Below are positions 2,139 through 3,049 of a stretch of DNA of 16,350 bases, piece after piece (position 1 is the stretch's first letter; each line of letters begins with the position of its first letter). The DNA lies in IMG/VR virus record IMGVR_UViG_3300029911_000461; one strand, given 5' to 3'. The translations under genes and the position numbers were made by a program. The notes beneath the pieces were generated by a model. That model made no database searches and was not told the DNA's origin. It worked only from the letters and a program-made list of their open reading frames with translations. This DNA is from a virus.

Positions 2139-2429
2139 ATGAACAGAGAGATGCTAATACAAGAAGTTTGTAACGAGATGAAAGCTGCTTTGCGCGGGCT
2201 GGCCATCCGTGTCGAACGGGAGGCGCTAGAGAAGGACAGGGAGCGCACCACCGCGCTGGAGGATGTGCTGACGGAGTTGGTTCTTGACATGGATCATCTC
2301 GGCAAAAGCTCTGCTGCAAAACGGAAAGCCGAGAAGCTGCTACAGGCGGCGGAGGAGTGCCCCCAATCCCCCTCGACAATCCGCAGGGACGCCAGGTGGC
2401 GCGCCAGGCCGCGGAAGAGGGCATTGTGA
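2139..2429 (+). CDS. Coiled-coil protein (96 aa as annotated), probably the N-terminal part of a longer protein that continues in the -1 frame
   Basis: ORF 2130..2429. The ATG at 2139 is preceded by AAGGTGGGA. Sequence is helical (EKLLQAAEE) until ~2357, then the frame-0 translation turns junk-like (CPQSPSTIRRDARWRARPRKRAL). Frame 2 is open from 2288 and reads protein-like from ~2400. Confidence 0.55.
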   Translation: MNREMLIQEVCNEMKAALRGLAIRVEREALEKDRERTTALEDVLTELVLDMDHLGKSSAAKRKAEKLLQAAEECPQSPSTIRRDARWRARPRKRAL

Positions 2430-3049
2430 CTAGCGACAACCGAGAGCTAACGATACAAAGTGTTAATCCTCACGCGAACTATCTTATGGACGGGGAATTC
2501 TGTATTGTTACAGGGTCTAAAGAGTTCGTAGAGGTCACAAAGAAGCGAATCGAGAATTACGCCGCCAATTGCGTCGCCCAAAAGGACGTTGAAATTCTCG
2601 CTCTCCGCACAGCGTTTAACAAGTTTGCATTGAATGTGATGGTTGCAGCCATAGAAGGCGTCGCCGATGCAGCCATAGTGAAGCAGGCTATCTATACCGA
2701 GCATACTTCGTTGGATGCGGTACGAACGCTTGCCGAGAAGCACAAATCTCTCCGCGCCCGGGTTGCCGAGCTGGAGGAGGCGCTAAGAAAGATAGCTGGG
2801 ATTCCAATTGGAGAATACGGGTCTGATGCCGACTACGAGGAAGAGCCGAAGGCCATTGACGGTGTGCCGGAGTTCGCCAATCGCGAAGAGCTCGAAGCCT
2901 TCCTCGCCAAGATGGAGGAGGAGATGCGCGAGGCCGCCAAGAAATTCGAATTCGAGCGCGCGGCCAAGATGCGCGATCTCATCCGCGAACTGCGATTGGA
3001 GAGAGATCGAAGAGGCAAGAGGACTAGCCGAAGCTGCGCTGACCAATAG
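2357..3049 (+). CDS. UVR-domain protein (C-terminal UvrB/UvrC-type interaction motif). 5' end uncertain, likely fused to the upstream ORF or starting at ATG 2486
   Basis: C-terminus EFANREELEAFLAKMEEEMREAAKKFEFERAAKMRDLIRELR matches the UvrB C-terminal UVR motif (..LEFEEAAQIRDQLHQLR..). The GTG at 2357 has GGAGGA immediately abutting, with no spacer, so it is an unlikely true start. Confidence 0.6.
   Translation: MPPIPLDNPQGRQVARQAAEEGIVTSDNRELTIQSVNPHANYLMDGEFCIVTGSKEFVEVTKKRIENYAANCVAQKDVEILALRTAFNKFALNVMVAAIEGVADAAIVKQAIYTEHTSLDAVRTLAEKHKSLRARVAELEEALRKIAGIPIGEYGSDADYEEEPKAIDGVPEFANREELEAFLAKMEEEMREAAKKFEFERAAKMRDLIRELRLERDRRGKRTSRSCADQ

Follow-up and report, generated by a model that had tools for sequence, protein, structure and literature searches.

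Positions 2139 to 3049 of the viral record IMGVR_UViG_3300029911_000461 (IMG/VR; 16,350 nucleotides [nt] in all, referred to here as the window) hold two open reading frames (ORFs) on the plus strand, ORF-A and ORF-B, which overlap in different frames and which an earlier reading of the letters alone (the sequence-only reading) had taken for the two parts of one split gene. According to the ORF listing and a three-frame translation, ORF-A runs in frame 0 from ATG 2139 to TGA 2427-2429 and encodes 96 amino acids (aa) with the C-terminal end ...KLLQAAEECPQSPSTIRRDARWRARPRKRAL; past a domain that closes with ...KLLQAAEE, its last residues read CPQSPSTIRRDARWRARPRKRAL. Frame 2 is open from 2288, right after TGA 2285-2287, and the stop codon at 3047-3049 closes ORF-B. 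The coordinates of both frames were confirmed in this way, and so were the two 15-mers described at the frame change, CAGGCGGCGGAGGAG at 2343-2357 and CAGGCCGCGGAAGAG at 2405-2419, which are identical at 13 of 15 positions and each encode QAAEE, the first in frame 0 and the second, a polymorphic copy, in frame 2. Taking out the 62 nt between them (2358-2419) does join the frames, into a single open frame of 282 aa, where ~300 aa had been given before. The 3' part of the first copy, GGAGGAG at 2351-2357, is a strong Shine-Dalgarno (SD)-like element, and it is followed by two C runs, at 2360-2364 and 2368-2372.

We scored codon usage in both frames with a model trained on the long genes of the window. 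The first part of ORF-A (residues 1 to 73; 2139-2357) scores +36.5 over 73 codons and forms a confident helical domain in the AlphaFold2 (AF2) model, with helices at residues 3 to 54 and 59 to 73 and predicted local distance difference test (pLDDT) values of 72 to 97. The basic tail that follows (residues 74 to 96; 2358-2426) is modeled with low confidence (pLDDT, ~48 to 60), and the 22 codons at 2358-2423 score -13.1 in frame 0, as low as none of 3236 true in-frame windows. By this codon score, the last 23 residues of ORF-A are not selected coding sequence; the tail is predicted to be disordered and unlike coding sequence in frame 0. ORF-A was called as a gene by the gene callers in related contigs and has no match in PHROGs or Pfam. 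An antisense ORF across the same region (1957-2439), whose codon score is -41.7, was discarded as a gene candidate.

The downstream frame scores +102.6 over the 207 codons from 2426 to 3046. AF2 run on ORF-B without an alignment returned a poor model (pLDDT, 46.5), and in PHROGs and Pfam the UVR motif alone passed its cutoff. Three GTG codons could open the frame, at 2426 (207 aa; ORF-B at 2426-3049), 2396 (217 aa) and 2357 (230 aa). The sequence-only reading had considered only the last of these, where the SD abuts the start codon, and had judged independent initiation improbable; it had overlooked the in-frame GTGs at 2396 and 2426, both of which are available. GTG 2426-2428 overlaps the ORF-A stop codon TGA 2427-2429 as GTGA and has AAGAGG (2415-2420) 5 nt upstream, while GTG 2396 is preceded by AGGGA at a distance of 6 nt. 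Gene calls differ in their choice: GTG 2396 is the start picked most often in the Joint Genome Institute (JGI) annotations, and the ENA calls in three contigs (L008 to L010) use GTG 2426, which gives a 4-nt overlap.

Between the ORF-A domain and GTG 2426 lies a variable, GC-rich (71%) junction of 68 nt (2358-2425; GC fraction of 0.706, versus 0.542 for the window), which forms the out-of-frame tail of ORF-A and, in frame 2, a leader or N-terminal extension of ORF-B (PPIPLDNPQGRQVARQAAEEGI). Its codon score in frame 2 is +7.0, a value that none of 6472 off-frame windows reach (P of ~0.01 relative to dinucleotide shuffles; ~0.04 relative to antisense windows of matched GC). The 62-nt "insert" therefore looks as if it is read in the frame of ORF-B, and this coding character argues against a noncoding gap that ribosomes bypass. 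The signal fits either an ORF-B start farther upstream, at GTG 2396 or 2357, or a continuous gene whose frame was disrupted close to the C run at 2360-2364.

As one explanation, the sequence-only reading had proposed an insertion or duplication that made the gene a pseudogene. Past the two 15-mers we found no likeness between the flanking units (P = 0.44), and a tandem duplication of a 62-nt unit was rejected, as the units outside the 15-mers are no more alike than shuffled sequence. An exact scan of 185,579 genomes found no donor for the core of the 62-nt segment (0 matches). Direct repeats of at least 13/15 identity with a spacing within 100 nt occur at ~7 places across the 16-kb window, and the degenerate repeat pattern yields at least two matches in 1 of 200 shuffles. 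In the majority of related strains, the second copy agrees with the first at only 12 or 11 of 15 positions, owing to single-nucleotide polymorphisms (SNPs) at 2412 and 2408, and encodes QAGEE (8 assemblies) or QPGEE (1 assembly); the QAAEE repeat thus exceeds chance only moderately. As a piece of history, an insertion or duplication is possible; it is weakened by the frame-2 coding character of the 62 nt and by the lack of an uninterrupted relative described below.

By exact look-ups and scans of DNA we found the locus again in JGI contigs (L001 to L003 and L012), ENA megahit contigs (L007 to L010 and L014 to L016) and one Logan contig (L006). The sources of the sequences with the split, JGI 3300029953/913/922 and Ga0302192 and eight ENA megahit assemblies, differ in sample and pipeline. 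An exact DNA scan with an upstream anchor returned no match in viral contigs and one further contig of the long haplotype, i.e., with the junction at its full length, in metagenome contigs. The string C5-AA-TC5 and the same split are identical in 12 independent assemblies, the window included, and the whole of 2340-2430 is identical among them except for the two SNPs. An error of sequencing or assembly in the C-rich run, another explanation put forward earlier, would owe its appeal to the homopolymer runs (CCCCCAATCCCCC) at the very point where the frame switches; since independently assembled contigs carry the same bases there, we consider it excluded for practical purposes. Each of the 13 assemblies keeps both ORFs intact, with no stop codon inside ORF-B.

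The junction is nevertheless the most variable spot that we found. Over ~9 kb there are 10 SNP sites (8 events), and 2 of the 10 (2408 and 2412) fall inside the 68 nt of the junction (coverage-weighted P of ~0.01); each of these two is nonsynonymous in both frames, and the sole indel found in the 9 kb lies in the junction as well. The junction also contains a 12-nt tandem repeat, CGCCAGGTGGCG at 2390-2401 and CGCCAGGCCGCG at 2402-2413, encoding RQVA and RQAA in frame 2. We observed that this repeat (2390-2413) holds a 10-bp palindrome, TGGCGCGCCA, and that both junction SNPs are located in its second unit.

The indel is a deletion of 61 nt (2366-2426, plus strand) in the Logan contig L006 (ERR14365177), which joins ...GGAGGAGTGCCCCCA to TGACTAGC. 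It creates the start ATG ACT AGC (MTSDNREL...) for ORF-B, precisely where the window has its GTG 2426 codon, and cuts ORF-A to 77 aa (..QAAEECPHD*). The resulting junction reads GGAGGAG-TGCCCCC-ATG-ACT-AGC, with GGAGGAG 7 nt upstream of the ORF-B ATG, an SD-to-start arrangement that resembles those at the other gene starts of the window; the two genes overlap by 8 nt (ATGACTAG). The deletion leaves the frames unjoined, with ORF-B now in the +1 frame relative to ORF-A. Given its two private SNPs (385 and 1669), L006 is a distinct lineage and the most divergent one in the set. The sequence-only reading had itself named a related genome with two separate genes and independent starts as evidence that would refute one split gene; L006, albeit a single contig, is such a genome.

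A second contig with a break at this place was not used. L007 (1-3445; ENA ERZ27249861 k141_199277) follows window positions 1991-2428, beyond which it carries bacterial genes, the first of them a truncated GH3/PA14 glycosidase gene. Its bacterial part continues in frame 2 exactly after the GTG 2426 codon, with a breakpoint that misses the right end of the L006 deletion by 2 nt. Since it is a single contig, either a chimera of assembly or a true recombinant of phage and host, it was left aside as evidence for a recombination hot spot.

Searches for a fused A-B protein were negative throughout. No such protein came up when 5.8 billion clusters were queried with the merged protein (282 aa) and with the -1-shift fusion of the N-terminal half, nor in an exhaustive phmmer search of 1.84 billion representatives with merged residues 1 to 212. 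The protein searches returned the own cluster of ORF-A, the own cluster of ORF-B and partial, module-level relatives; the two own 90% clusters have 15 members in all, none of which is fused and which differ only in the called start codon and in SNPs. In viral contigs and genome contigs there were no relatives of the merged protein or of the TIQ domain (queried as a two-sequence alignment). The word-indexed protein search missed the ORF-A cluster P0128 despite 73 identical query residues, and its negatives were cross-checked by other searches; a further alignment-based protein search returned nothing, not even its own source proteins, and was treated as uninformative. The uninterrupted gene that the sequence-only reading had suggested looking for in related phages is therefore absent from every database searched.

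The only relative of the domain at the start of ORF-B is P0135, a protein of 193 aa that matches ORF-B from V(2426) on (54% over 52 residues); the BLASTP homology begins at exactly this residue. P0135 is encoded by a genuine single ORF, in which ~73 aa precede the homologous domain and codon 74 is GTC, not a start codon. Its N-terminal 73 aa have no similarity to ORF-A. P0135 shows that the ORF-B domain can follow an equally long N-terminal domain and says nothing direct about ORF-A.

Regarding transcription, a consensus scan of 1950-3200 found only two σ70-like sites, at 2079-2107 upstream of ORF-A and at 3072-3101 upstream of rIIA, and neither a promoter-like nor a terminator-like site between ORF-A and ORF-B. 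The first, on the plus strand, reads TAGACA-17-TATCTT with a TG and carries ACAATAGGCAAA, which recurs upstream of rIIA; the motif common to both sites is ACAATAGSCAAA.

Given a stop and a start that overlap as GTGA, SD-like elements ahead of the candidate starts, only one promoter-like site for the pair, the start created in L006, the lack of any fused form, the relaxed junction and the homology to P0135 that begins at V(2426), we read ORF-A and ORF-B as two cotranscribed, separately initiated overlapping genes that involve neither a recoding site nor an error, with a probability of roughly 0.72. One transcript from the promoter-like site at 2079-2107 would carry both cistrons, upstream of rIIA and rIIB. 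Translation from ATG 2139 would yield the helical ORF-A protein, whose domain ends in ...KLLQAAEE at 2357 and whose unconstrained tail would run on to TGA 2427. ORF-B would most likely start at GTG 2426, where ribosomes would either reinitiate across the GTGA overlap after terminating on ORF-A or initiate directly from AAGAGG, with GTG 2396 as the alternative. The intervening 62 to 68 nt would be poorly constrained, tolerating SNPs that change amino acids and, in the L006 lineage, the loss of 61 nt by which ORF-B gains a canonical SD-ATG start. Like known coupled overlapping cistrons of the ATGA/GTGA type in operons of phages and bacteria, the pair has a stop/start overlap (GTGA), a purine-rich SD-like sequence inside the upstream gene, one upstream promoter-like site and neighboring genes that overlap by 4 to 8 nt. 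It differs from them in having two more in-frame GTGs upstream and a frame 2 that is coding-like for ~70 nt before GTG 2426, so the true overlap could be 34 or 73 nt instead of 4. Translational coupling and the choice among the GTGs are, accordingly, what we infer from this layout. For annotation, this means two genes, with the ORF-B start at GTG 2426 or 2396 and not at 2357, and without a flag for a pseudogene or an assembly error. In this reading the feature is real but ordinary, namely, a pair of overlapping small phage genes with a variable junction.

Several observations weigh against two separately initiated genes. All three candidate starts of ORF-B are GTG; AAGAGG at GTG 2426, like AGGGA at GTG 2396, is weaker than the SDs at the other gene starts of the window, and GTG 2357 has no well-spaced SD ahead of it. 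The coding-like character of the junction (2358-2425) in frame 2 reaches back to the very end of the ORF-A domain. With at least 99.9% identity, the population is close to a clone, so that conservation cannot show selection on either ORF, and the short haplotype comes from one Logan contig, L006. Given the lack of a well-spaced SD at GTG 2357 and the frame-2 signal of the junction, the coding signal moves from frame 0 straight into frame 2, as it would in a single gene that has been frameshifted.

Such a single two-domain gene, recently frameshifted and reduced to a pseudogene or to a remnant with poor expression, is one rival explanation, and we regard it as unlikely. It could have arisen by the loss of 1 nt from a C6 run at 2360-2364, from an ancestor of 303 aa reading ...QAAEECPPIPLDNPQGRQVARQAAEEGIVTSDN..., or by a 62-nt insertion or duplication. 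By either route, the ORF-A tail and the GTG starts would be accidental, and the deletion in L006 would have come later, as compensation that restored expression of ORF-B. The switch of the coding signal at ~2357-2365 with no noncoding gap would be expected under it; the frame-2 residues PPIPLDNPQG look like a proline-rich linker between domains, P0135 has ~73 aa ahead of the homologous domain in a single ORF with GTC as codon 74, and removing the QAAEE repeat unit restores the frame. Against this, no uninterrupted version exists in any database searched, the N-terminal 73 aa of P0135 are unlike ORF-A, and the repeat has no duplication signal past its 15-mers (P = 0.44, as above). Moreover, all 13 assemblies retain both ORFs, none with a stop codon in ORF-B, and the L006 deletion keeps the two-gene layout with an ideal start and does not re-fuse the frames. 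The favored two-gene reading itself allows for an origin of this kind: the pair may have come from one continuous two-domain gene divided at this point, as the frame-2 coding junction, the QAAEE repeat and the single-ORF architecture of P0135 suggest; a change of 1 nt in the C run or a recombination joint could have caused such a split.

Programmed recoding, the last of the explanations offered by the sequence-only reading, would produce the fused A-B protein from the sequence as it stands, by a P-site slip on the C5 run (-1 in the long and +1 in the short haplotype) or by a 62-nt hop from GAG to GAG; we consider it very unlikely. The GAG codons at 2355-2357 and 2417-2419 flank the 62 nt such that the hop is exactly in frame, and the ends of the segment can pair, AGUGCCC (2356-2362) with GGGCAUU (2419-2425). 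The spacing of GGAGGAG 3 nt before CCC recalls that of the prfB +1 site, and the element GGAGGAG-UGC-CCC indeed places an SD-like sequence 3 nt upstream of the CCC codon of the C5 run. This spacing favors +1, which leads to ORF-B in L006 only, whereas the window haplotype needs -1. When we read the frame-0 codons of 2288-2429 by eye, the overlap contained no slippery heptamer of the form X XXY YYZ; C CCC CAA fails at its A-site codon. The A-site codon after CCC is CAA (CAU in L006), i.e., no stop, and no stop follows the candidate take-off GAG, the next codon being UGC (2358-2360) with frame 0 open for 23 more codons. RNA folds of the junction (including 2358-2404, 2366-2410 and 2355-2430) were no better than dinucleotide shuffles, with z-scores of +0.10, -0.27, -0.41, +0.14, +0.70 and -0.43, and the junction had no match to an Rfam family or frameshift element. 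Added to this are the coding-like character of the gap in frame 2, unexpected for a bypassed noncoding segment, and the polymorphic 15-mer on the landing side. Finally, the two natural haplotypes need opposite shifts, -1 or the 62-nt hop in the long one and +1 in the short one, which makes a conserved programmed signal unlikely. On these grounds, recoding is not supported.

We compared the junction with known recoding systems on the basis of the defining features published for the gene 60 bypass and for -1 programmed ribosomal frameshifting (PMC7026636). In the bypass of T4 gene 60, a stop codon directly follows the take-off codon, and in -1 frameshifting a stimulatory structure lies 5 to 9 nt downstream of the slip site (PMC7026636). 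Other features of the gene 60 type of bypass are a take-off stem-loop and a 3' stem-loop as stimulators, a noncoding gap that relatives keep and a nascent-peptide signal in the first ORF by which the peptidyl-tRNA is retained. Here, as with the 50-nt hop in gene 60, phage ORFs in two frames can be joined by skipping a segment, in this case 62 nt between GAG 2355-2357 and GAG 2417-2419, and the GAG/GAG pair joins them in frame; this counts for little, because GAG is common in this sequence. The junction differs from gene 60 in lacking both a stop after the take-off codon and a take-off or 3' stem-loop above shuffles, and in a gap that is coding-like, polymorphic and deleted in L006 without repair of the frame; nor does the gene that hosts it encode a topoisomerase subunit. 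With the dnaX-type -1 site, the prfB-type +1 site and the G/GT site of tail chaperones it shares overlapping ORFs offset by -1; it differs from programmed frameshift sites in having no heptamer, no downstream structure and no A-site stop, and its arrangement is not kept in the short haplotype. It is highly improbable that GGAGGAG-UGC-CCCCC (2351-2364) acts as a low-level recoding site, giving, beside the separate products, a fused protein of coiled coil, linker, TIQ domain and UVR tail by -1/+1 slips, or that a 62-nt hop does so. Fusion products would be marked by the junction peptides AEEGIVTSDNR or AEECPPIPLDNPQGR. Were it real, a hop from GAG to GAG would add a second and unrelated case to bypassing of the gene 60 kind; bypassing and noncanonical frameshift sites are rare.

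Turning from the junction to its surroundings, the two genes that we propose lie directly upstream of rIIA (3106-5532) and rIIB (5525-6757), with a Ku-like gene further on, and these neighbors identify the element as a phage. Among 50,697 deposited phage genomes we found no relatives by megablast and tblastn. Short gene overlaps are usual in these contigs: rIIA and rIIB overlap by 8 nt, and the genes in contig L011 overlap by 4 nt. We also observed a motif, ACAATAG(G/C)CAAA, that occurs three times (2082-2093, 3043-3054 and 3068-3079) in intergenic sequence just upstream of ORF-A or rIIA, where the copies overlap or adjoin the promoter-like hexamers; three matches were reached in none of 200 shuffles, and the motif may be a phage promoter or a regulator-binding site. 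A separate cluster of imperfect direct repeats (GACGAGGAAGATGAG and variants) at 6659-6745, near the 3' end of rIIB, encodes an acidic, D/E-rich repeat tail.

Downstream of its start, ORF-B is composed of parts with different relatives. The segment 2599-2759 (plus strand; ..LRTAFNKFALNVMVAAIEGVADAAIVKQ..KHKSLRA) is a module common to otherwise unrelated small phage proteins. Its 161 nt are 97.5% identical to L004 1969-2129 and L005 1965-2125, which carry P0002, and the proteins P0136 to P0139 match ORF-B in this module only, with different N and C termini; the block looks like a recently exchanged module. Further on, 2828-2994 (plus strand) corresponds to the 3' end of a host uvrB gene and codes for the C-terminal linker and UVR helical hairpin of UvrB, with 88% nucleotide identity (147/167) to the bacterial uvrB in L013 and 91% amino acid identity to P0003. 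The UVR domain that had been placed at the C terminus of the downstream ORF is borne out by Pfam (PF02151; 30.4 bits against a cutoff of 21.5, at residues 182 to 213 of the 230-aa ORF). More than 100 UvrB C termini were matched, some of them named as Acidobacteriaceae, which hints at the host clade. In its last ~60 residues ORF-B is thus the same as UvrB at 91% protein and 88% DNA identity and above the Pfam threshold, and it differs in having the C-terminal tail only, without the helicase domains and fused to phage-specific modules. By these sequence matches, ORF-B is demonstrably a recombinational mosaic, and its C terminus of ~60 residues is a captured host uvrB tail.

A stretch of ~700 nt thus holds a variable junction, a module shared at 97.5% nucleotide identity with an unrelated phage and a captured uvrB 3' end, which points to fast reshuffling of small early genes in this peat/soil phage. 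A phage protein that carries the UvrC-contacting domain of UvrB could disturb excision repair in the host, and it may bind host UvrC or UvrB. The capture of the uvrB tail, more interesting as a by-product than the split of the frame itself, is therefore a lead on phage interference with nucleotide excision repair of the host.

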